A DNA stretch of 24,853 bases, from IMG/VR virus record IMGVR_UViG_3300008255_000454, positions 1-24,853 of that record; one strand, given 5' to 3'. Source of the DNA: a virus. Taxonomy: Duplodnaviria; Caudoviricetes. Shown here in pieces: positions 1 through 12,822 of the stretch; position 1 is the first letter of the stretch; each line of letters starts with the position of its first letter. Made by a program: the position numbers and the translations under genes. Below the pieces are notes generated by a model. That model was given only the letters and a program-made list of their open reading frames with translations. It made no database searches and was not told where the DNA came from.

Positions 1-129
1 GTGAATGGTAAGGAGATGTCCGAAGCAGATGCGAAGAAGATGTTCGAGAAGCCGAAGACCCCGGATGAAATCGATGCACTCCGAACATTAGCAAAGCACT
101 TCGGCTATCGTCTGGTGAGTGAAGGATAA
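1..129 (+). CDS. 3' end of a HRxxGLPA-repeat family protein (partial; VNGKEMSEADAKKMFEKPKTPDEIDALRTLAKHFGYRLVSEG*)
   Basis: Frame 1 is open to TAA at 127-129. nt 1-45 are identical to 4217-4261. The C-terminus (KPK..IDAL...GYxLV) parallels that of 2846..3247. Confidence 0.8.
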   Translation: MNGKEMSEADAKKMFEKPKTPDEIDALRTLAKHFGYRLVSEG

Positions 130-191
130 GAAGCGATAACCACACGACTTACAACAATCTTCACTATTTTCGGACAATTCGCTAAAATCCC

Positions 192-220
192 TTGACAGCT
201 TCCCCACAATAGCCGATAAT
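192..220 (+). promoter_or_regulatory. sigma70-type early promoter P1
   Basis: TTGACA (192-197), 17 nt, GATAAT (215-220). An AGAAGGA Shine-Dalgarno precedes ATG 256. Confidence 0.7.
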
Positions 221-255
221 GGTTCATGTAACGCGAACAGGAAAGAAGGAACCAT

Positions 256-1525: not shown

Positions 1526-1583
1526 GGTATTGTTGATTGAGTGATTGACTTTTGAACTACGGGAATCAGGAAAGGTTCTGAAA

Positions 1584-2801
1584 ATGGCAAATGTGATTTT
1601 CTTCGATGCGAACGGTAAGATTTCTTCGACCAAAGTTAAGGGTCGTGGTCGCCCCCCGAAGGGTGCTGTGAAGCAGCCGAACGGCGATTTGCATGTTCCC
1701 TTCCAAGCTACAAATGTGGGCAATGCCCCTTCCCCGAAGACCGGGAAAAAGCTCAAGAAGTCTAAGGAATTTGTCGTGAAGACTCCTCGTCGGGAACGAA
1801 TTGCGGAAGCCAAGAAGGAATTTTATTCCCCGTCGGCGAACCCCGTTCGTGTGAAGACCATCGATTCCACGATGGACATGCATGGGAATCCGATCAATCG
1901 GACGCCTGTGGTTGACCCGCTGTATGTGCAATGGGGGCACCATGCCGATATTTTGAAAATCGCGAAGTCTGGTTTGTTTTTCCCCGTCTTCGTGACTGGT
2001 CTTTCTGGTAACGGGAAGACCTTCATGATCGAACAAATTGCCGCACAGTTGAAACGTCCTTGGTTTCGTGTGAACATCACTACTGAAACCGAAGAAGACG
2101 ATTTGCTCGGCGGGTTCCGTTTGATCGATGGTGATACGGTCTGGGTCGACGGTCCGGTTGTCGAAGCCTTGAAGACCCCGAACGCAATGTTGTTGTTGGA
2201 TGAAATCGATTTGGGTGGGGCGGCATTGATGACGCTTCAGCCGGTGCTCGAAGGCAAGGGTGTGTTTATCAAGAAGACGAACACCTGGATTGAACGAGCA
2301 CCCGGTGTTCAGATTTTCGCCACCGGCAATACGAAGGGACGCGGTGACGATTCGGGTAAGTTTGCAGGAACCAACATGATGAACGAAGCCATGTTGGAAC
2401 GCTTCGCGGTTACGATGGAGCAGCCTTATCCCGATGCAGCAATTGAGACGCAGATTCTCGACAAGGTTTTCGTTGACCTTGGAATTGAAAACGATAATCT
2501 GAAGGGCAATTTGATCGCCTGGGTCTCCACCATCCGGTCTGCCTATCTTGAACAGGCTATCGATGATATGATCACCACCCGCCGACTGGTCAAATTTGCC
2601 GAAGGATATTCGATCTTCAAGAACGAATTGAAGGTAATCGATATGATCACCTCCCGCTTTGAAGACCATGTCCGGGAAGCCTTCAAGGACTTGTGGAAGA
2701 AGGTTTCCACGGTCGAAACGGTCGATCCCGTTTCGGTTGATACCGAAGCGAATCCCGTTGTGACCGATGTAAACGCCAAGGGATATAAGACCCCCTTCTA
2801 A
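1584..2801 (+). CDS. cobS: CobS/MoxR-like AAA+ ATPase with N-terminal AT-hook-like extension
   Basis: Walker A GLSGNGKT, RVNIT.ET.EDDLLGG, Walker B LLLDEID, ATGNTKGRG, NEAMLERF, TRRLV. ATG 1584 follows an AGGAAAGG SD (the ORF track extends to TTG 1545). Confidence 0.88.
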   Translation: MANVIFFDANGKISSTKVKGRGRPPKGAVKQPNGDLHVPFQATNVGNAPSPKTGKKLKKSKEFVVKTPRRERIAEAKKEFYSPSANPVRVKTIDSTMDMHGNPINRTPVVDPLYVQWGHHADILKIAKSGLFFPVFVTGLSGNGKTFMIEQIAAQLKRPWFRVNITTETEEDDLLGGFRLIDGDTVWVDGPVVEALKTPNAMLLLDEIDLGGAALMTLQPVLEGKGVFIKKTNTWIERAPGVQIFATGNTKGRGDDSGKFAGTNMMNEAMLERFAVTMEQPYPDAAIETQILDKVFVDLGIENDNLKGNLIAWVSTIRSAYLEQAIDDMITTRRLVKFAEGYSIFKNELKVIDMITSRFEDHVREAFKDLWKKVSTVETVDPVSVDTEANPVVTDVNAKGYKTPF

Positions 2802-2845: not shown

Positions 2846-3247
2846 ATGAAAACAGAAATCAAAAAGACAGACAAAAACGGAAACATCTCCTACTATAACG
2901 AGAAGGATCAATACCACCGCGACAATGGTCTTCCTGCCGTCGAATATTCCAACGGATATAAGGCATGGTATGTGGATGGAAAACGCCACCGCGAAGATGA
3001 TCTTCCTGCCATCGAAGGTGCCGACGGATATAAGGAATGGCGGGTGAATGGAAAACTCCACCGCGAAGGTGGTCTTCCTGCCGTCGAATATGCCGACGGA
3101 TATAAGGCATGGTATGTGAATGGTGTTGAAATGACCGAAGCAGAGGCGAAGAAGATGTTCGCGAAGCCGAAGCCGTCGAAGACCATCGATATTGACGCAC
3201 TCAATGCAGCAATTCTTCCCCTTGGATATAAGATTGTGAAGGTCTGA
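2846..3247 (+). CDS. HRxxGLPA 24-aa repeat protein (MORN/YwqK-like beta-hairpin repeats, 3 copies) with a C-terminal LGYKIV tail
   Basis: Three tandem HR[D/E]xxLPA[V/I]ExxxGYKxWxVxG units followed by the linker MTEAEAKKMF. Confidence 0.8.
   Translation: MKTEIKKTDKNGNISYYNEKDQYHRDNGLPAVEYSNGYKAWYVDGKRHREDDLPAIEGADGYKEWRVNGKLHREGGLPAVEYADGYKAWYVNGVEMTEAEAKKMFAKPKPSKTIDIDALNAAILPLGYKIVKV
2915..3124 (+). repeat. Three tandem 72-bp coding repeats (units at 2915, 2987, 3059); further copies at 4160, 6745, 6817
   Basis: CACCG...CTTCCTGCCRTCGAA...AAGGMATGG...GTG recurs with 72-nt period. Confidence 0.9.
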
Positions 3248-3251
3248 TAAT

Positions 3252-3728
3252 ATGACTCCTTCCCCACAGCATTTAAGTCATGATTCGACCGGGGATTATC
3301 ATTCTAAAACTAATGATACCCCTGCCTATATTACACCCGATGGCACACAGTATTTTTATTTTCATGGAAAGCTGCACAGGGAAGATAATCTTCCCGCCGT
3401 AATTCATCCGGACGGCTCCCTTGAATATTGGTTCTTCGGAAGCAGACACCGGGAAGGACTCCCACAACTTCCTGCCGTGATCCGCAAATCCGGGGAATTG
3501 CCACGGGTCGAATATTGGTTGTATGGCAAGTTGCACAGGGAAGATGAAAATCAGCCTGCGGTTATTTCCGATGATGGGGAATTATTGGAATATTATCAGC
3601 ATGGAAAGCGGCACAGACTTGACGGTCCTGCATTAATCCGCTATGATAGTCATAGTCGGACGAGAATGAATTACTATTATGTCAATGGTGAATTCATCCG
3701 GAAGACCGTGGACGATAATGTAGATTGA
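3252..3728 (+). CDS. Diverged HRxxxPA repeat protein (about 4 units)
   Basis: GKLHREDNLPAVI, SRHREGLPQLPAVI, GKLHREDENQPAVI, GKRHRLDGPALI. Confidence 0.8.
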   Translation: MTPSPQHLSHDSTGDYHSKTNDTPAYITPDGTQYFYFHGKLHREDNLPAVIHPDGSLEYWFFGSRHREGLPQLPAVIRKSGELPRVEYWLYGKLHREDENQPAVISDDGELLEYYQHGKRHRLDGPALIRYDSHSRTRMNYYYVNGEFIRKTVDDNVD

Positions 3729-3730
3729 CG

Positions 3731-4096
3731 ATGAAAGAACAACTGTCATCCGACGAATTTCTGAAATTGCTTTCCCCCATTCTCAAAGAAGAAAATGGCT
3801 GGCATCGAGTAAATAAACCAGACGATTTATATCCTTATTTGGTGTGGCATATTCCTGAAAATATAACCAATGGTGCATTTTTGTTTATCCAGTCGATGGC
3901 TGGCAATTACATTGTAATCCCCCTTGTCGATAACCGAACAGGGGGGACCGAGACGTGTGAATATTATAATTCGCGGAAGAATAAATCCTTGCGGATCACA
4001 ATCGAGCAATTTTTGAAGATGGTGAATGATAGTCCGGACACGTTAAAATCCATCTTCCTGGAATTCCTGAAATTGTATCATGATCGACCGGTTTAA
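3731..4096 (+). CDS. WxIPE-family hypothetical protein #1
   Basis: PILKEENGW...VWHIPE...FLKLYH; ATG 3731 (the ORF track starts at TTG 3725). Confidence 0.75.
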   Translation: MKEQLSSDEFLKLLSPILKEENGWHRVNKPDDLYPYLVWHIPENITNGAFLFIQSMAGNYIVIPLVDNRTGGTETCEYYNSRKNKSLRITIEQFLKMVNDSPDTLKSIFLEFLKLYHDRPV

Positions 4097-4098
4097 TC

Positions 4099-4621
4099 AT
4101 GCGAAAAAAAAACAAATACAAATGGTGATATCTTCTACTATAATGAGAAGAATCGACTCCACCGCGAAGATGGTCTTCCTGCCGTCGAAGGTGCCGACGG
4201 TGATAAGGCATGGTATGTGAATGGTAAGGAGATGTCCGAAGCAGATGCGAAGAAGATGTTCAATAAAATCACATGGGAAGAATTCCGAAAGATATTCGAT
4301 CCTGTCTTCACAAAAGAGAAGGGCTGGCGAACCCACGAAACAGATTCATGGTATTATAAATGGATGATCCCGGAATCCACCACTGGTGCATATCTTTACG
4401 TACAATTAATCATGATGACCCAGTTCGATAACGCACCGCTAATTGCAGAATCTTTAATCATCGATACAAATAATAATGCAAGTGACCGCACAGCTAGGAA
4501 TACAGGTATTAGTGTAAAGTCAAGCGATCCGCGATTCACCACACTTGTCAATAATCCGGAAGAAATGAAGAAGGCAGTAATGAAGGTATTACACAGTCAC
4601 CACGAAGAAAAAAGGAATTAA
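4099..4621 (+). pseudogene. Repeat module + WxIPE-family fusion #2, out of frame at an A9 tract (4104-4112); pseudogene, phase-variable gene or sequencing error
   Basis: ATG 4099 reads MRKKNKYKW*. Removing one A gives MRKKTNTNGDIFYYNEKNRLHREDGLPAVEGADGDKAWYVNGKEMSEADAKKMF...EKGW...WMIPE...VLHSHH, collinear with 6685..7245. Confidence 0.7.
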
Positions 4622-4624
4622 ATC

Positions 4625-4885
4625 ATGCTAATTATAATTATGTCTATTCTACTACTGTTGGCTGCTATGGGGTTGTTGGTGTTTATATCGTCTGAGACGG
4701 CGGGTGAATTAGATTTGATTCAAGCAACACTGACCATCGTCGTCGGCTTCACATTAATGTCTATGGTTCTTATGTATTATGTGGGCTATCGCGATGGTCA
4801 GATCGATGCGATCAATGGTAAGATGCATTACAAGAAGGTCGTGGATAATGTAGATCGATATGAATTCATTAAGAAGGATGAATGA
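4625..4885 (+). CDS. Small membrane protein (2 predicted TM helices)
   Basis: Two long hydrophobic stretches followed by GYRDGQIDAINGK. Confidence 0.7.
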   Translation: MLIIIMSILLLLAAMGLLVFISSETAGELDLIQATLTIVVGFTLMSMVLMYYVGYRDGQIDAINGKMHYKKVVDNVDRYEFIKKDE

Positions 4886-4993
4886 TGATTAATTGCTGTA
4901 AACCATTGTGAAAAAACAGTGTATGATGATCGGGGGGAGTGAAGGGGGTGACGGGCTGCTTTACGCGGACTATCCTTCACAATCCAAAACAAT

Positions 4994-5061
4994 TTCAAAA
5001 AAATCCCGCCGCCAAAAAATATAATCCACATTCAAAAAATTCCCGCCAAAAAAATTCTGCC
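4994..5061 (+). repeat. A-tract/CCCGCC direct repeats upstream of P3
   Basis: TTCAAAAAAATCCCGCC (4994-5010), TTCAAAAAATTCCCGCC (5031-5047), AAAAAAATTCTGCC (5048-5061); related AAAAAAATTTCGCC at 5470-5483. Confidence 0.6.
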
Positions 5062-5079
5062 CAGAACCCGCTATTTCTA

Positions 5080-5108
5080 TTGACACTACCGGTTAAATCA
5101 AATATCAT
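5080..5108 (+). promoter_or_regulatory. sigma70-type promoter P3 (probably a leaderless transcript)
   Basis: TTGACA (5080-5085), 17 nt, TATCAT (5103-5108); 6 nt separate it from ATG 5115; no SD. Confidence 0.65.
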
Positions 5109-5114
5109 GAAGAC

Positions 5115-5444
5115 ATGGAATGGACACACGAAAACTTTCACCGGGTATTTGGTCCTCTTTTCCTTGAATCGAAGGGTTGGACGAGATATAGCGATTACTT
5201 GTATATTTGGGAAATTCCGGAATCGGATTACCCACAATCCAACTATTTGTTTGTTATTTTCGATCGTGGGGGCGCGGTATTTCGCTATGGATACGAATCC
5301 TCGATGATGATGCCGCACAAATATGAATGGAAACTTCCCCAACATAGAATGGAAATTGAAGAAATGTTTACCCGACCGGAAATTGTTGTTCGTGGATTGA
5401 ATGAATTGCTGGAAACATGGCACCGGAATGTCAATCATGTTTAG
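5115..5444 (+). CDS. WxIPE-family hypothetical protein #3
   Basis: FGPLFLESKGW...IWEIPE...YLFVIF...VFRYG...LLETWH. Confidence 0.8.
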   Translation: MEWTHENFHRVFGPLFLESKGWTRYSDYLYIWEIPESDYPQSNYLFVIFDRGGAVFRYGYESSMMMPHKYEWKLPQHRMEIEEMFTRPEIVVRGLNELLETWHRNVNHV

Positions 5445-5501
5445 TGAGAGCCGTGCGATTGCATAACATAAAAAAATTTCGCCTGTGATGCGACATTTTT
5501 A

Positions 5502-5529
5502 TTGACAATCCTCATGCTAATGATATAAT
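5502..5529 (+). promoter_or_regulatory. sigma70-type promoter P4 (extended -10; probably leaderless)
   Basis: TTGACA (5502-5507), 16 nt, TATAAT (5524-5529) preceded by TGn; 6 nt separate it from ATG 5536. Confidence 0.7.
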
Positions 5530-5535
5530 GAATTC

Positions 5536-5901
5536 ATGGAATTGACACCGGAAAATTTTGATCGGATATTCCAACCGATTCTCAAAAAAGAAAAGGGGTG
5601 GAAACACATTGGGGTCAGCACCCTGTTGTATTGTTGGAACATCCCGGAAGCGGAAGCCGATGATTCTCGCGAACAAGAATATCTGTTTGTTGTATTCTAT
5701 ACAAGAGACAATCAAACAACCGTATTTCGTTATGGAATTGATACCCTAATGCATCGCGAAGTTCGGCGGAAATACGAATTCACAACACCAGACGACGAAC
5801 ACATTATTTCAGATTTATTTCTTCATCCGGAGAAGGTAGTGGACGCATTGAATGGTCTTCTTCTAAATTGGCATATTGCGAACGACGGAATTAAATCATG
5901 A
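5536..5901 (+). CDS. WxIPE-family hypothetical protein #4
   Basis: FQPILKKEKGW...CWNIPE...YLFVVF...VFRYG...LLNWH; closest paralog of #3. Confidence 0.8.
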   Translation: MELTPENFDRIFQPILKKEKGWKHIGVSTLLYCWNIPEAEADDSREQEYLFVVFYTRDNQTTVFRYGIDTLMHREVRRKYEFTTPDDEHIISDLFLHPEKVVDALNGLLLNWHIANDGIKS

Positions 5902-6317
5902 AAACCACTCACCCAGTGTTTAAAGCGACAGAGTACATGACATCTTCTCTTGTTCAAGAATGGGCAAAAAAGTATTATCATGATGTGCTTTACCCCGGAA
6001 TTATCGAGTCGAAAAAATCCGAATGGAAGGTGTGGGACGTTGGTAGTGAGCCGTTTCCGGTTTATCTTCTCTGGAATATTCCAGAAGCGAACGACGATGT
6101 GACTTCTCTTTATTTTCGATTTCCGCACGTGAACAACGCTGGAAGGGTTTATACCGTATATTCGGTAATTGATGTTGGGATCATGGATAGTGACGGGGCA
6201 TGTTTGAGCTCCCGAAAAATTCGCATTGCAACCAAATCCAGCCAGACACATTTCGTAGAAGAAATTAAGAATGCCATCGTAACCCTACTTGACCAATTTC
6301 ACAATAAAAAATTATGA
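5898..6317 (+). CDS. WxIPE-family hypothetical protein #5
   Basis: ESKKSEW...LWNIPE...LLDQFH; ATGA overlap with the upstream gene. Confidence 0.78.
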   Translation: MKTTHPVFKATEYMTSSLVQEWAKKYYHDVLYPGIIESKKSEWKVWDVGSEPFPVYLLWNIPEANDDVTSLYFRFPHVNNAGRVYTVYSVIDVGIMDSDGACLSSRKIRIATKSSQTHFVEEIKNAIVTLLDQFHNKKL

Positions 6318-6688
6318 ATGACAAACAAAAACAATTTCGTCTCAAAATGATGCCCTTCCTTGCCGAAAGCAAGGGGTGGTCGGATCACGAGTGGTTTGTA
6401 CGGTGGAATATTCCGGAATCAGAGACGGAAACAGCTTTAGACACGTATTTGTTTGTGAATTTTAGTCCTTCGATGGACAAGGCGTTCTGTGTATATGGTG
6501 TGAATTGGTTTGGGGGGAAGGAAAGGGACCATAATCTTCCAGCCGATAGTCTTCGGATGTTACGCGTAACATCCGAAGACGATCCACGGATTCGTGACCC
6601 TAAAATGATCGTGGATGATCTTCTGCGGATACTGGATAATTATCACACCCATGTTTTGAGAACTAAATCCCTTGGTTGTGCCAAATGA
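6314..6688 (+). CDS. WxIPE-family hypothetical protein #6
   Basis: PFLAESKGW...RWNIPE...YLFVNF...ILDNYH; ATGA overlap. Confidence 0.78.
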   Translation: MNDKQKQFRLKMMPFLAESKGWSDHEWFVRWNIPESETETALDTYLFVNFSPSMDKAFCVYGVNWFGGKERDHNLPADSLRMLRVTSEDDPRIRDPKMIVDDLLRILDNYHTHVLRTKSLGCAK

Positions 6689-7245
6689 ATACGAAAACAA
6701 ACCAATACGGAAGCACCTTCTACTACAACGAGAAAGATCAACACCACCGTGATGGTGGTCTTCCTGCCGTCGAATATGCCGACGGTGATAAGGAATGGTG
6801 GGTGAATGGAAAACTCCACCGCGACAATGGTCTTCCTGCCATCGAATATGCCGACGGTGATAAGGAATGGTGGGTGAATGGAAAGAATATGACCGAAGCA
6901 AAGGCGAAGAAGATGTTCAATAAAATCACATGGGAAGAATTCCGAAAGATATTCGATCCTGTCTTCACAAAAGAAAAGGGATGGGAAATTGTAGAAGATC
7001 GTCCTGGGAAGTTTTATAAATGGAATATTCCGGAATATCCTGGGAATTATATTTACGTTCAATTGATAGTAGATCACAAAACAAAATTTGTAACACACCT
7101 GATAGTCGGAACAGAGGGAGGGAGTGAACATTGTAATAATGTAACCATTGGCACCAAAGACCCAGATTTTGTTGCGTGTGTTACTAATCCGAATATGATA
7201 AAAAAAACAGTATTGGATATTCTGGAGATTGTGCATAAGCTATGA
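6685..7245 (+). CDS. Repeat module (2 units) + WxIPE-family fusion #7
   Basis: Two HRDxGLPA repeats, MTEAKAKKMF linker, FDPVFTKEKGW...KWNIPE...ILEIVH; ATGA overlap at 6685. Confidence 0.8.
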   Translation: MNTKTNQYGSTFYYNEKDQHHRDGGLPAVEYADGDKEWWVNGKLHRDNGLPAIEYADGDKEWWVNGKNMTEAKAKKMFNKITWEEFRKIFDPVFTKEKGWEIVEDRPGKFYKWNIPEYPGNYIYVQLIVDHKTKFVTHLIVGTEGGSEHCNNVTIGTKDPDFVACVTNPNMIKKTVLDILEIVHKL

Positions 7246-7805
7246 TTAATTTATCTGAATATACCGGTCCTGGTGGGGTTGAAAAAAAACACCCATACTT
7301 TGACTCCAACACACCCGGCTGGTGTGCTCGTTTGGGTCAGAAAGTTCTCGTTCCTTTGTTCGACCTTGCTAATCAAAATAATAAGTGGTCAATGCGAACT
7401 CTTCTTCGAAATAAGGATCAACGACAATTGGATAGTACAAATACGTTCTCTATCCTGTTCGAGTGGGCGATTCCTGATATTGTGAAAATTCACCCAACAT
7501 CCGGAATGGAAATGCACCCAGTTTTGTATATCGGGCTTCCCAAAACAAAGGGGTCTATCCGTGGTCTTTGGAGTGACAGTTGGTTAACTTATAATCCAGG
7601 TATGAACAAGATCGTGGTTGGTGTTCATATGGAAGGAAAAGATATCGAAGGATGCCCACCAAAAAATGCAATCAGTTTATCTACAACAAATCCTTCGTAT
7701 GTAACATACAATATGAAAACATACATGGATGATTGCGACATTAATTTCTGGAAAAACATCATCAACGATGTTCTAAACGAGGTTCATCAGCAAAAATCAA
7801 TATGA
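7242..7805 (+). CDS. WxIPE-family hypothetical protein #8 (long, diverged)
   Basis: VPLF...NNKW...EWAIPD...WKNIINDVLNEVH; ATGA overlap. Confidence 0.72.
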   Translation: MINLSEYTGPGGVEKKHPYFDSNTPGWCARLGQKVLVPLFDLANQNNKWSMRTLLRNKDQRQLDSTNTFSILFEWAIPDIVKIHPTSGMEMHPVLYIGLPKTKGSIRGLWSDSWLTYNPGMNKIVVGVHMEGKDIEGCPPKNAISLSTTNPSYVTYNMKTYMDDCDINFWKNIINDVLNEVHQQKSI

Positions 7806-8161
7806 GCGATCAAGACGACACAAAAGAATTGCAAGAAATTCTCCGTCATGTGGTGATGGGGACAGCATCCAACAATCCGGAAATTCAGGGAAGAGCCTTC
7901 GCCCTTCATGACCGGATTTTGATGAAGGAATTGGTTGTGATGAAACCGATTACTCATTCCCAGCCACAGACCGCAGTATATCCGTCTACGGTAGAAATCC
8001 GCCACAACGGAATGAAAGCCAAGATTTCAGGTCAGACAATGAACGCTATCATGGCGGATATCAAAGATGGTAAAATCATTCCAGCTATCAAGACGTTGCG
8101 AATAGAAACGGGATTCGGTTTGAAAGATGCCAAAGACTATATCGAAAGTATTAGACCATGA
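7802..8161 (+). CDS. Protein with a C-terminal ribosomal L7/L12 (bL12) CTD-like domain
   Basis: KIIPAIKTLRIETGFGLKDAKDYIES matches the bL12 CTD consensus KIxVIKxVRxITGLGLKEAKDLVE. Confidence 0.7.
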   Translation: MSDQDDTKELQEILRHVVMGTASNNPEIQGRAFALHDRILMKELVVMKPITHSQPQTAVYPSTVEIRHNGMKAKISGQTMNAIMADIKDGKIIPAIKTLRIETGFGLKDAKDYIESIRP

Positions 8162-8367
8162 AATACAATCCGAATGACCCAACACACCGCACCAAACTCC
8201 TTGACCATTACGCGGCGAATCTTGAAAAAATTCGTCAATTCATACACCAATTCACGCAAGAATTTGAATCGGATTTTGTTTTTGAAGGAACAATCATAGC
8301 GGACGAAGTCCCGTGGAACCCCCTTATTGATTTGTATAAAACAGCAAAGGAAATTAATTTACCATGA
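8158..8367 (+). CDS. Hypothetical protein
   Basis: 69-aa ORF with ATGA overlaps at both ends. Confidence 0.65.
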   Translation: MKYNPNDPTHRTKLLDHYAANLEKIRQFIHQFTQEFESDFVFEGTIIADEVPWNPLIDLYKTAKEINLP

Positions 8368-8738
8368 AACAAGAATTTTATGATCGTATCGCGGAGTTGG
8401 TAGAGGAAGCAGAATTTGGAATCCGGTCCAAGTACACGGAAATCGATAATTTCGCGGTGGCTAATGTCTATGATTGGAAGAACAATCTCCCGGCTTCCGG
8501 TATCGGTTATGTTCAAACGTCACCTGTTTGGTTCCAACTCGTATCCGGTGAATATCTCTTGTTCGCTATTTCCCGTGATCGGTTTGAAAAACTTAATGTC
8601 GCATTGAATATGGGATTTGAAACAAACGAACCTGTGCTGCAGGAATATTCATTGTTTGATGAAGATGCGTGTTACCCGGTGGGATGGGTGTCGCTATCAA
8701 CAGAGGAACTCGTATATGGGGAATGTAAATCAGAATGA
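8364..8738 (+). CDS. Hypothetical acidic protein
   Basis: 124-aa ORF with ATGA overlaps at both ends. Confidence 0.7.
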   Translation: MKQEFYDRIAELVEEAEFGIRSKYTEIDNFAVANVYDWKNNLPASGIGYVQTSPVWFQLVSGEYLLFAISRDRFEKLNVALNMGFETNEPVLQEYSLFDEDACYPVGWVSLSTEELVYGECKSE

Positions 8739-9064
8739 CAAAAATCGAAGAAGAATACAATCAAAGCATGGATGATGTATTACAAACAATTAACCAGGAA
8801 ATTACACAAGCCGAAAGGATTTGTAGGCGTTCATCTACCGCTTCTGTATTCGGGACAATCGCGTTGACTGTCGTTCTTTGGTATCAATATGGGTGGATAA
8901 CCGGTATCTTTAGTCTGTTGATGATTTTGATGATTTCATCCGCTGAAAGTTTGTACAGTCGGGCTGCGGTAAGTTTGAAATTGTTGAGGAACGAAAAGGA
9001 ATTGCATGAATCTCTGGTCAAAAACATTCAACAAACTATATTGAAAACTATTGAAAATGAATAA
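8735..9064 (+). CDS. Membrane protein (2 TM) with coiled-coil-like flanks
   Basis: VFGTIALTVVLWYQYGWITGIFSLLMILMISSA hydrophobic core; ATGA overlap. Confidence 0.7.
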   Translation: MTKIEEEYNQSMDDVLQTINQEITQAERICRRSSTASVFGTIALTVVLWYQYGWITGIFSLLMILMISSAESLYSRAAVSLKLLRNEKELHESLVKNIQQTILKTIENE

Positions 9065-9425
9065 ATCCCTTTTTTCTCAAATGACACAGGATAGGTTGGT
9101 TCCTCATGACAAGATAAAATTTATCACGGATCATGTTCTGTCGCAAATCATTTATGGGGGTGATAAGGGATGGTTGTATGGGTATTATACCGATCATCGC
9201 TTTTACGTTATTTGGCGTATTCCTGAAGCAAAACATTTGAACACCTATGTCGGTATCGTTGTATATCCGCCTGAAATACGAATATATTTTGTTATAGGAG
9301 GACGCCAAATTCATGAATGGACCATTAATGTCATGCACCGGGATATTGATCATAGAATTCACCACGACCCGGAATGGTGGAAGGGTGAAATCTTGAAATT
9401 AATCGATAAATTTCATAAGATGTGA
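9057..9425 (+). CDS. WxIPE-family hypothetical protein #9
   Basis: GDKGW...IWRIPE...PEWWKGEILKLIDKFH. Confidence 0.75.
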   Translation: MNKSLFSQMTQDRLVPHDKIKFITDHVLSQIIYGGDKGWLYGYYTDHRFYVIWRIPEAKHLNTYVGIVVYPPEIRIYFVIGGRQIHEWTINVMHRDIDHRIHHDPEWWKGEILKLIDKFHKM

Positions 9426-9465
9426 TGTACCATTAGGTTATGCTTTGATGAATATTAGATTTTGC

Positions 9466-9493
9466 TTGACAATATCGGGCAATCCGATATACT
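9466..9493 (+). promoter_or_regulatory. sigma70-type promoter P5 with a palindromic operator-like spacer
   Basis: TTGACA (9466-9471), 16 nt, TATACT (9488-9493); ATATCGG-N5-CCGATAT at 9472-9490. Confidence 0.7.
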
Positions 9494-9525
9494 GGGGATG
9501 TTCAGATTAGGGAAAGGACCACCAA

Positions 9526-9585
9526 ATGGACATTGAAATCGTAGGCGACGAAATCGAAGACTTTTTGGAATTCATCAGAGGATAA
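9526..9585 (+). CDS. 19-aa acidic micropeptide MDIEIVGDEIEDFLEFIRG
   Basis: Strong SD (GGAAAGGA) directly after P5; the stop lies 5 nt before the next ATG. Confidence 0.5.
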   Translation: MDIEIVGDEIEDFLEFIRG

Positions 9586-9590
9586 TTGCA

Positions 9591-9821
9591 ATGACACTTA
9601 CAGAAATTGAATTGTTGGAACGTTTGTCACAAGCCGGAACATTGCGGGTTGATTCGTTTGGCAGTAGATTTGATTCTGCCATTGCCAACCTTCAAGATCA
9701 TGGATTCATCAAGATGCATGTGGGTTCGGATAAATTCGTTTCCCCATTTCTCTACGTGACGACTTCCGGGTTTCATGAATTTCATAAGTACAGCATCGAT
9801 CACCACACCGTTTTGGGTTAA
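9591..9821 (+). CDS. Small putative winged-helix DNA-binding protein
   Basis: AIANLQDHGFI...YVTTSG resembles the wHTH recognition helix and wing (L..G.I...Y.T..G). Confidence 0.55.
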   Translation: MTLTEIELLERLSQAGTLRVDSFGSRFDSAIANLQDHGFIKMHVGSDKFVSPFLYVTTSGFHEFHKYSIDHHTVLG

Positions 9822-9825
9822 TATC

Positions 9826-9915
9826 ATGAAAGCCACAGACTATGGATTTTGGATTGCCGCTGGAATGTTTGGCGGGATAATGTTTAAGATGGCAATGGCT
9901 CCTTTGTTTTTTTGA
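9826..9915 (+). CDS. 29-aa hydrophobic peptide MKATDYGFWIAAGMFGGIMFKMAMAPLFF
   Basis: Fills the gap between neighbouring genes; single TM-like segment. Confidence 0.4.
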   Translation: MKATDYGFWIAAGMFGGIMFKMAMAPLFF

Positions 9916-9923
9916 GAACCACC

Positions 9924-10361
9924 ATGACCATATCACAATATTCTCCGGAAACGTATCCGCTTGACTGGTTTGCGTCATACGGATATCTGGCTAACGCCAA
10001 ACCAGAATCCGACTGGCGGTATTTTGTGGTCGATACGATTTTTCAACAGATATTGACAGAAGATAATAAATGGATGCTGCTTGGTCAAATGATCGACCGG
10101 TTGATTTTGCGGTGGAATATTCCGGATCATTATGGCGATCCTCATGACAGACTGGTTATATTTGTGGATTATGCTACTTCGTCAATTTTAGTTTCCACCT
10201 ATACCGATGCCGACTTTAATAATCCAGTATCCCAACAGGTAATTACCAAAGAACAATTTCACACTACCCGCAACAATCTTCACACACCAGATGCATGGAA
10301 GAAAATCATCAACGATGTGCTGGGTGAATATCACACGAAGATGCGAACACCCGTAAGGTGA
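9924..10361 (+). CDS. WxIPE-family hypothetical protein #10
   Basis: IFQQILTEDNKW...RWNIPD...PDAWKKIINDVLGEYH. Confidence 0.75.
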   Translation: MTISQYSPETYPLDWFASYGYLANAKPESDWRYFVVDTIFQQILTEDNKWMLLGQMIDRLILRWNIPDHYGDPHDRLVIFVDYATSSILVSTYTDADFNNPVSQQVITKEQFHTTRNNLHTPDAWKKIINDVLGEYHTKMRTPVR

Positions 10362-10405
10362 ATCATGTTAGTAACTCATAACAGTAAATTTGTGGGTGGC
10401 GGACG

Positions 10406-10774
10406 ATGGGTGAGTCCTCTACTATTTACTGGATGCGATACACAGTCGAAATGGTTTTCCGGGGTATCTTGAATGAATCAAAGGGTTGGTGGACACCAAC
10501 CGATAGTCACGAACAAATTGTTTTTCGCTGGGATATCCCAGAGCACAAATACGCATGGATTGTTATCAACTTTGATACAACACTATCAAGTGTAACAATT
10601 CGTACTGTATTAGACACTGTCACAGAAAGTGGGTTTTATGTTGATGGTATTCATATTATTCTTGAGGATGATGTTCCTGTAGGCACACCATCAAGTGACG
10701 CACAACGATTTTGGATTGATTCAATATTGAAGGTGTTGAGTGATTTTCATGCAAAGATCAACAGCAATGGTTAA
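10406..10774 (+). CDS. WxIPE-family hypothetical protein #11
   Basis: VFRGILNESKGW...RWDIPE...ILKVLSDFH. Confidence 0.75.
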   Translation: MGESSTIYWMRYTVEMVFRGILNESKGWWTPTDSHEQIVFRWDIPEHKYAWIVINFDTTLSSVTIRTVLDTVTESGFYVDGIHIILEDDVPVGTPSSDAQRFWIDSILKVLSDFHAKINSNG

Positions 10775-11120
10775 ATGCTATCACACGTATCTTGTTGCAT
10801 ATATTGATCGTGAAATTGCCCGCTATTATATTTCTCTAATTCCAAAGGCATTTCAAACAAAAGGCACACGATACGCACCTCACATTACAATTGTCCGCTA
10901 TGGTGTAGAATCCGTTACGGATATTTCACTTGCGGATAAATATGATGGAATGGAAGTTGAATTTGAATATGATCCGGTGACATACTTTCATCATCCGTAT
11001 TTCTTCCATGATGTTTTCAGCCGGGATATTGGGGATATTCGCGAATCGTTGGGGATGTTACGATATCGTGACGGATTTGATCGCTATCACTTCACAATCG
11101 GAAACGTAAAAAAATCATGA
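10767..11120 (+). CDS. 2H phosphoesterase (Acb1/T4 gp57B-like or 2'-5' RNA ligase family)
   Basis: Two HxT motifs, APHITIV (His at 10881) and RYHFTIG (His at 11088). Confidence 0.65.
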   Translation: MVKCYHTYLVAYIDREIARYYISLIPKAFQTKGTRYAPHITIVRYGVESVTDISLADKYDGMEVEFEYDPVTYFHHPYFFHDVFSRDIGDIRESLGMLRYRDGFDRYHFTIGNVKKS

Positions 11121-11671
11121 GTTTAACATATAAATCCAAGTATGGTGTGTATGGTGTTGTTTGTGATTTGATTTCAACACTACAACAATCGATTCTTTTG
11201 GAATCGATTGGGTGGGGACGCCCCATGAATAAAACCACATTTGACGTACAAACCGAGACAGCTAAGATTGAATTCGTTTGGAAAATCCCCGAATATCAAG
11301 CATCAAATCGACCATTGTGGTCCAAAGTGGAAAAATCACACATAACTGTGCCAATGAAAATTAAGCCGGAAGACCTAGTGGTACAATTTAACCTGGACTT
11401 CAAATATAATCATAAATGTTCCGTTGATTATTTTTACAATGGAAGACTATCAAAAGAGCCACCGCGACTTGGGGGCATTTTGAATATCCTGACATGCCGG
11501 AGACTAATTGATATGTCATGGAAATCATCCGATCATACTCATCATTTACATTACATGAAGTATACTGATCCGGATCAAAGATTATACCACATGTTCAACC
11601 ATGATTTTGTGAAAGTCTTTCGGGAAGCCACACTCGAAATTCTGAAAGACATTCACGATAACAACGATTAA
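11117..11671 (+). CDS. WxIPE-family hypothetical protein #12 (long, diverged)
   Basis: SILLESIGW...VWKIPE...LEILKDIH; ATGA overlap. Confidence 0.72.
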   Translation: MSLTYKSKYGVYGVVCDLISTLQQSILLESIGWGRPMNKTTFDVQTETAKIEFVWKIPEYQASNRPLWSKVEKSHITVPMKIKPEDLVVQFNLDFKYNHKCSVDYFYNGRLSKEPPRLGGILNILTCRRLIDMSWKSSDHTHHLHYMKYTDPDQRLYHMFNHDFVKVFREATLEILKDIHDNND

Positions 11672-11685
11672 TAGGAATTAACCAT

Positions 11686-12555
11686 ATGTACTTAATGCAT
11701 GACTATGACGACACGTTAGCGAAAATTCTTTCACGCGGGGCTTGGTCCAACAATCGCACGGGAATTCGGACTAAGGCATTGTATGGTGTACAGTGTCGGT
11801 ATAAATTGAATGCCGGTATTTACGGTGGTCCTTACGGATTCCCGTTGGTTACAGTCCGCAAAATGTTTCCCAAATCCGGATTTGCCGAATTGATTTGGTT
11901 TCTTTCAGGTTCGACAAACAATAACGATCTTGTTAAACTCGGTGCGAAATTCTGGACACCGTGGGTCAGTCGTGAATTTGAAGAAGCAAATGGATTTGGA
12001 CCGGGCGATCTTGGCAGCATATATGGTCATCAACTTCGTCACTTTGGATCGGATTACAAAACAAAGGCGGATGGATTCGATCAACTTGCCTACATGGAAA
12101 AGGAAGTTAAAACCAATCCAACCAGTCGGCGTATTTTGTTTTCATTGTGGAATATGAAAGACTATAGTCAAATGCGACTTGCCCCGTGCCATGTTATGTA
12201 TCAGGTATGCATTAATGGCAATGGGGAATTGACCGGGATATTAACACAAAGATCAAACGATGTTTTCGTGGGAGTCCCTGTCAATGTTCAATTTTATTCC
12301 GCATTGACATTAATGTTTGCCCATGTTGGGGGATTCCAAGCGGGCGAATTTGTCCACAACATGAACGATGCTCACATTTACGAAAATCAAATTCCTGCCG
12401 TACAGGAATATTTGGAACGGTCGAGCCACATACTACCCGACTCCCCACAAATTAAAATCAACCACCACGATAATATTTGTGATTACACAGTGGATGATTT
12501 TCACATAATCAACTATAATCCTCTACCAGCAATTCAAGTGCCTATCGCGGTGTAA
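11686..12555 (+). CDS. thyA: Thymidylate synthase
   Basis: NRTG, FPLVT.RK, ELIWFLSG, DLGSIYG, SRR, catalytic LAPCH, QRSND, GVPVN (dUMP-specifying Asn), DAHIYENQ. Confidence 0.95.
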   Translation: MYLMHDYDDTLAKILSRGAWSNNRTGIRTKALYGVQCRYKLNAGIYGGPYGFPLVTVRKMFPKSGFAELIWFLSGSTNNNDLVKLGAKFWTPWVSREFEEANGFGPGDLGSIYGHQLRHFGSDYKTKADGFDQLAYMEKEVKTNPTSRRILFSLWNMKDYSQMRLAPCHVMYQVCINGNGELTGILTQRSNDVFVGVPVNVQFYSALTLMFAHVGGFQAGEFVHNMNDAHIYENQIPAVQEYLERSSHILPDSPQIKINHHDNICDYTVDDFHIINYNPLPAIQVPIAV

Positions 12556-12777: not shown

Positions 12778-12813
12778 GACCCCGATTATTAGTTTAGTCG
12801 GGGTCATTTTTTT
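12778..12813 (+). terminator. Rho-independent terminator closing the early/accessory region
   Basis: GACCCCGATTA / TAGTCGGGGTC stem followed by ATTTTTTT. Confidence 0.85.
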
Positions 12814-12814
12814 G

Positions 12815-12822
12815 TATAAATA
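12815..12822 (+). promoter_or_regulatory. T4-type late promoter TATAAATA
   Basis: Exact gp55-dependent late consensus about 50 nt upstream of the gp6 start. Confidence 0.75.

Follow-up and report, generated by a model that had tools for sequence, protein, structure and literature searches.

An apparently private array of twelve divergent WxIPE paralogs in the accessory region of an uncultured T4-like phage

Arrays of paralogous small accessory proteins are a known kind of system in large viruses. For SPO1, a host-takeover gene cluster has reportedly been described. The rudivirus SIRV2 carries twelve genes for AcrID1 homologs, divergent small paralogs that are clustered, and some of them stand behind strong early promoters while others do not (PMC11065993). 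In T4, the internal proteins (Ips) Ip1-3 have one target each and can serve as a model in which each host variant is matched by one inhibitor (PMC12373910), and T4-like vibriophages give a precedent for variable accessory regions (PMC12028318). With respect to protein architecture, the class I type III secretion (T3S) chaperones and YbjN proteins, which share the TY-chaperone fold (SycT, ExsC, DR1245, AmyR), are among the closest known systems to the domain described here. We have analyzed the IMG/VR virus record IMGVR_UViG_3300008255_000454 over its whole length of 24,853 bases (hereafter the window; completeness 14% by CheckV) and describe an array of twelve genes with a common W-x-I-P-[E/D] motif, here termed WxIPE.

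The twelve genes are one homologous protein family. Their W-x-I-P-[E/D] motifs all lie on the plus strand, from 3845 to 11279, with a single motif per gene; a six-frame scan of the window gave 13 matches, the thirteenth in an antisense frame of the gene at 5898. Composition alone predicts 0.03 motifs in the accessory open reading frames (ORFs; 2724 residues) where 12 are observed, and the core ORFs contain none in 5066 residues. Alignment of the members (A1) revealed five invariant columns, W22, W34, I36, P37 and H113, and an acidic residue at position 38 in 12 of 12, at a median pairwise identity of 20%. In leave-one-out profiles every held-out member beat the best of 200 shuffles (13-69 bits versus at most 8.2), the weakest being 7242 and 11117 (13-15 bits), which both have long insertions. 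Two half-family profiles align with 96% probability over 102-112 columns, nearly the whole length. The original prediction of twelve ORFs with one WxIPE skeleton is thus borne out by motifs and profile homology, except that the ORF at 4099 is not intact, its frame being shifted by a run of nine adenines (A9). Likewise, the claim that all copies are highly divergent agrees with the median identity but not with the closest pairs, the 4256/6913 domains (48% identical) and 5115/5536 (44%). That account also made no mention of the N-terminal MORN-like repeat module in the genes at 4099 and 6685.

The array packs these twelve divergent small paralogs into 8 kb. Paralog 1 (3731-4096, 121 residues) was assigned by alignment and reaches 35 bits when left out of its profile. 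Motif and alignment identify paralogs 3 (5115-5444, 109 residues), 5 (5898-6317, 139 residues), 9 (9057-9425, 122 residues), 10 (9924-10361, 145 residues) and 11 (10406-10774, 122 residues), whereas the divergent paralogs 8 (7242-7805, 187 residues) and 12 (11117-11671, 184 residues) were placed by profiles. Paralog 4 (5536-5901, 121 residues) was assigned by alignment and is the member with a structure model. Paralog 2 (4099-4621) combines a MORN-like module with a WxIPE domain at about 4256-4621 and is frameshifted right after its ATG; paralog 7 (6685-7245, 186 residues) joins MORN-like repeats to a WxIPE domain in an unbroken frame. Paralog 6 (6314-6688, 124 residues) has a minor variant with a one-base deletion at 6554, seen in a contig of minor depth (3.1 of 17.7) and also as the truncated protein P0012; the deletion lies within a 40-base near-perfect palindrome at 6545-6584. 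Two further plus-strand genes are interspersed. One (7802-8161) has a weak likeness to the bL12 C-terminal domain (PF00542, E 1.4e-4, below the cut-off), and the other (10767-11120) encodes a 2H-phosphoesterase-like protein with two HxT motifs (phrog_12204, E 1.4e-12; LigT, E 0.2). Relatives of the latter occur in two other clusters only, at 37-45% identity.

The WxIPE domain had no match over the cut-off in Pfam, PHROGs, NCBIfam or PADLOC, and thus none to a housekeeping family, which the original prediction had named as a result that would speak against it. Against PDB sequences no member gave a match under E 0.1, hence none to solved inhibitors. Among 1.84 billion representatives, an HMMER search recovered the 12 paralogs, partly in the form of variants from other assemblies, along with a single chance match of low complexity; 32 related virus records contain no WxIPE copies. 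Since the HMMER search would catch 8 of 12 held-out members, very distant relatives may still exist. At the sensitivity tested, sequence comparison indicates that the family is private to one phage lineage, and by the searches of Pfam, PHROGs, NCBIfam, PADLOC, PDB and HMMER it appears to be undescribed. Like the AcrID1 arrays, the WxIPE genes are about a dozen divergent small clustered paralogs in one virus, and some of them, but not all, lie behind predicted strong promoters. In contrast, the WxIPE members lack a PDB sequence match, reside in a bacterial T4-like phage, are confined to one lineage as far as the searches go, and are not known to have any activity. One protein from another assembly, P0006, is a 6685 protein variant that begins like the repeat copy on metagenome contig L179; it is either a recombinant or a mis-join across repeats.

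Structural information comes from one confident model, that of paralog 4 (5536). Its elements follow the order H5-12, E22-25, E30-35, H37-40, E49-57, E61-69, E80-83, H88-96 and H98-120 (H, helix; E, strand), and a direct hairpin joins strands 3 and 4. This order deviates from the fold definition of the class I T3S chaperones and YbjN (PMC3575483), and none of the 12 members matched CesT, YbjN or related models in Pfam, PHROGs or NCBIfam. The TY-Chap2 meander domain and frataxin/CyaY-like folds, likewise among the closest known systems, belong to host genes in other contexts, and Pfam revealed no sequence link between them and WxIPE. When the sheet faces are assigned by alternate strand positions, one face would be conserved and fully hydrophobic (entropy 0.96 bits), and the open face would be variable (2.36 bits), with 68% hydrophobic, 38% aromatic and 12% basic residues. 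This model, with a core face predicted to be conserved and an open face predicted to be variable and mostly hydrophobic, supports the earlier proposal that a conserved scaffold presents variable surfaces.

An aromatic open sheet may also point to nucleic-acid binding, to single-stranded DNA or RNA or to modified bases, as in PC4/Whirly, McrB-N or the MotA C-terminal domain. We regard this as unlikely. The net charge of the members ranges from -7 to +2 and is neutral to acidic in 10 of 12, Lys and Arg make up just 12% of the open face, and such folds rank below chaperone folds among the structural neighbors of the model. Because of this composition and these charges, the open face seems to fit a protein-binding or dimer role better than DNA binding.

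By hairpin geometry in the model, W22, W34-IPE and H113 at the end of the last helix would come together at the same sheet end. Flanked by the two tryptophans, Glu/Asp38 and His113 could form a common site of an enzyme, or of a small-ligand family or sponge, with copies tuned to different substrates such as nucleotide signals. The conservation of the His/acid pair at 20% identity speaks for such a site, as does the 2H-like gene within the array. However, the alignment holds no other invariant polar residues, no enzyme stands out among the structural neighbors, and clamps of Trp, Ile, Pro and His are common structural motifs; a catalytic or ligand-binding family therefore seems to us quite improbable.

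Virion-packaged internal proteins that are injected with the DNA to inhibit restriction, like Ip1-3 of T-even phages, are a still weaker candidate, and we consider this role very unlikely. In several copies the first helix ends in hydrophobic-x-Glu, which we take to resemble the prohead-protease site; in the model, however, this helix belongs to the confidently predicted fold (predicted local distance difference test, pLDDT, 87-92) and is not a removable leader. Moreover, Ips are basic and the WxIPE members mostly are not. The phage is T4-like, and T-even phages carry many Ips (PMC12373910). Both groups consist of several small accessory proteins in a T4-like phage. Ips have a common N-terminal packaging signal, whereas WxIPE proteins probably have the whole fold in common, with varied N-termini that seem not to be shared and with N-terminal repeat fusions in two copies.

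Plus-strand sigma70-type promoter consensus sequences lie at 5080-5108 (11/12), at 5502-5529 (12/12, with extended -10) and at 9466-9493 (11/12), the last upstream of the last gene run (9591 onward). Weak sigma70-type sites number 44 in the region versus 31 +/- 6 in shuffles, and we have therefore used the top three only. The promoter consensus at 5502 heads a run of overlapping genes that reaches 9425, with nine consecutive overlapping junctions from 5536 to 9057. At 5115 and 5536 alike, the ATG comes just 7 bases after the end of the -10 box, so that the transcripts there are probably leaderless, and the promoter types suggest that the array region is expressed early in infection.

The reading that we favor, at a probability of roughly 45%, is that the WxIPE proteins are soluble proteins made early, each of which uses the common scaffold to bind a host partner of its own, in the service of host takeover or counter-defence. 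The private family would have expanded by old tandem duplication between the MoxR ATPase and thymidylate synthase genes, and host sigma70-type polymerase would read the genes early, as leaderless or translationally coupled messages. Each gene would yield a soluble sheet-and-helix domain of 110-170 residues, in which W22, W34-x-I-P-E and the terminal L..H may act jointly as a single structural node and keep the last helix clamped against the first hairpin. From copy to copy the open face of the sheet would differ and bind a different host protein or peptide, as in YbjN/type III chaperone folds, so that the array would constitute a repertoire for host takeover or counter-defence. Two copies might have gained a second binding surface by recombining with a dispersed MORN-like module. 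Several points weigh against this picture: the fold class is common, one copy is broken, and the His/acid pair is invariant. The anti-defence or sponge role suggested earlier has likewise gained no direct support, since homology to a known inhibitor was not found and the adjoining 2H protein had no match in a PDB sequence search. If each copy does have a different partner, the array would offer twelve candidate inhibitors, built on a single new scaffold and ready for use as a panel, and a route to the host defences of an uncultured host; it would also show that duplication, conversion and domain capture can diversify a binding fold in a phage with no need of a retroelement. The reach is limited because the family was found in one phage only.

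Part of the array may have a recent history, to which the MORN-like repeats give access. A stand-alone gene at 2846-3247, with a short helical tail, carries the same module as paralogs 2 and 7, and is followed by an older, divergent MORN-like gene (3252-3728; MORN_2, E 0.34, below the cut-off), both on the plus strand. The tract 4156-4327, comprising repeat, linker and first helix, is 91% identical to 6813-6984; this 172-base identity ends at the KGW motif and drops beyond it. Over their first 24 codons the 4256 and 6913 domains have the same amino acid sequence, with a synonymous divergence (dS) of 0.19 versus 1.6 downstream, and on these grounds we read the tract as recent gene conversion. 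At least 11 repeat copies have distinct 5' flanks, about 78-95% DNA identity and several different C-terminal tails: window 1-137, 2846-3247, 4099-4261 and 6685-6918, L175:6551-6949, and copies on contigs L176, L178, L179, L180, L183 and L184. The WxIPE domain is one such tail, in the genes at 4099 and 6685. An exact-motif scan located the module on further metagenome contigs that also carry T4-like core genes. Two of them, L175 and L180, have an overlap with the window, and we infer that the remaining module-bearing contigs belong to the same phage. A phrog_459 peptidase/VWA gene is split by a repeat copy (L175:5267-7946, minus strand; window 192-221 and 256-1413) into halves that correspond to profile positions 7-317 and 336-736, the second with its own sigma70-type promoter consensus at 192. 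The repeat family is dispersed between core genes and behaves like a recently spreading element, for which no mobility enzyme was identified. The stand-alone repeat tails (window 3160-3247; L175, L176, L183) end in helix-Gly-Tyr/Phe-strand and resemble the helix-GW-strand start of WxIPE, which may reflect a common motif and not kinship. A target array of a diversity-generating retroelement was considered and rejected, the repeat differences not being confined to adenines but including C>T, G>A, T>A and T>G; no reverse transcriptase was found among the 28 window proteins scanned, from a record that is 14% complete.

In paralog 2 the reading frame is open for 9 codons from the ATG at 4099 and then meets a stop, the shift being due to the A9 run at 4104-4112 (plus strand), a candidate slippage site. 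The A9 stretch recurs in L175 and, in 4 of 4 runs, in gap-free contigs. These runs are not necessarily independent of one another, yet an assembly slip is unlikely on this evidence. Nine adenines are, we presume, a length at which RNA polymerase slippage occurs, so some full-length product is possible. A bolder version of the binder reading, which we find doubtful as a whole, would make the array a private library of chaperone-like binders in which every member sequesters its own host defence or regulatory protein, with the mobile-element-like MORN gene capturing domains as exchangeable C-terminal tails and A9 slippage toggling one fusion.

The frameshifted copy and the broken minor variant are also what one would expect of a birth-and-death array, in which copies arise by unequal recombination, are weakly selected and in many cases have little function; the locus would then be an ordinary lineage-specific expansion. 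The conversion tract, the spread of the repeat gene to at least 11 sites by the same phage lineage and the failure of HMMER to find relatives elsewhere point in the same direction. Selection estimates (dN/dS about 0.44 for 5115/5536 and 0.49 for 4256/6913 beyond residue 24, with dS near saturation) suggest that constraint is not strong. However, five residues have stayed invariant and 12 domains have stayed open although the branches are long (the median for end branches is 1.35 changes per column), and the genes are tightly coupled and have near-perfect promoters. We therefore hold this explanation to be rather unlikely.

The core genes of the window (a phrog_459 VWA half, MoxR/CobS ATPase, thymidylate synthase and baseplate gp6, gp7 and gp8) identify it, on gene content, as a fragment of an uncultured T4-like myophage. 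The array region is bounded on the left by a MoxR/CobS-type AAA ATPase of T4-like phages (1545-2801; Pfam/PHROGs and sequence search) and on the right by thymidylate synthase (11686-12555; Pfam/PHROGs), both on the plus strand. Past the latter, a terminator-like hairpin (12778-12805) and an octamer at 12815, presumably a T4 late promoter and the sole exact match in the window, set the accessory block apart from gp6. Close relatives of the phage were not found in the searched collections; the ATPase has at most 54% identity to cyanophage proteins, and gp6 35-45% to viral contigs. The run that covers the window best carries the label aquifer metagenome and could be its source sample. Shine-Dalgarno-like words precede 6 of 29 gene starts between 256 and 18818, with A at -3 in 17 of 29, which hints at a host that uses little Shine-Dalgarno pairing, yet has canonical sigma70 promoters. 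A 50-residue ORF at L176:4643-4795 and the N-terminus of the MoxR ATPase (window 1545-1700) have in common a basic GRGRPPKG motif, which we take to be AT-hook-like, as well as the flanks of this motif. Another local duplication is seen at L184:1262-2011, where two phrog_21015 paralogs stand in tandem on a contig that is probably from the same phage.
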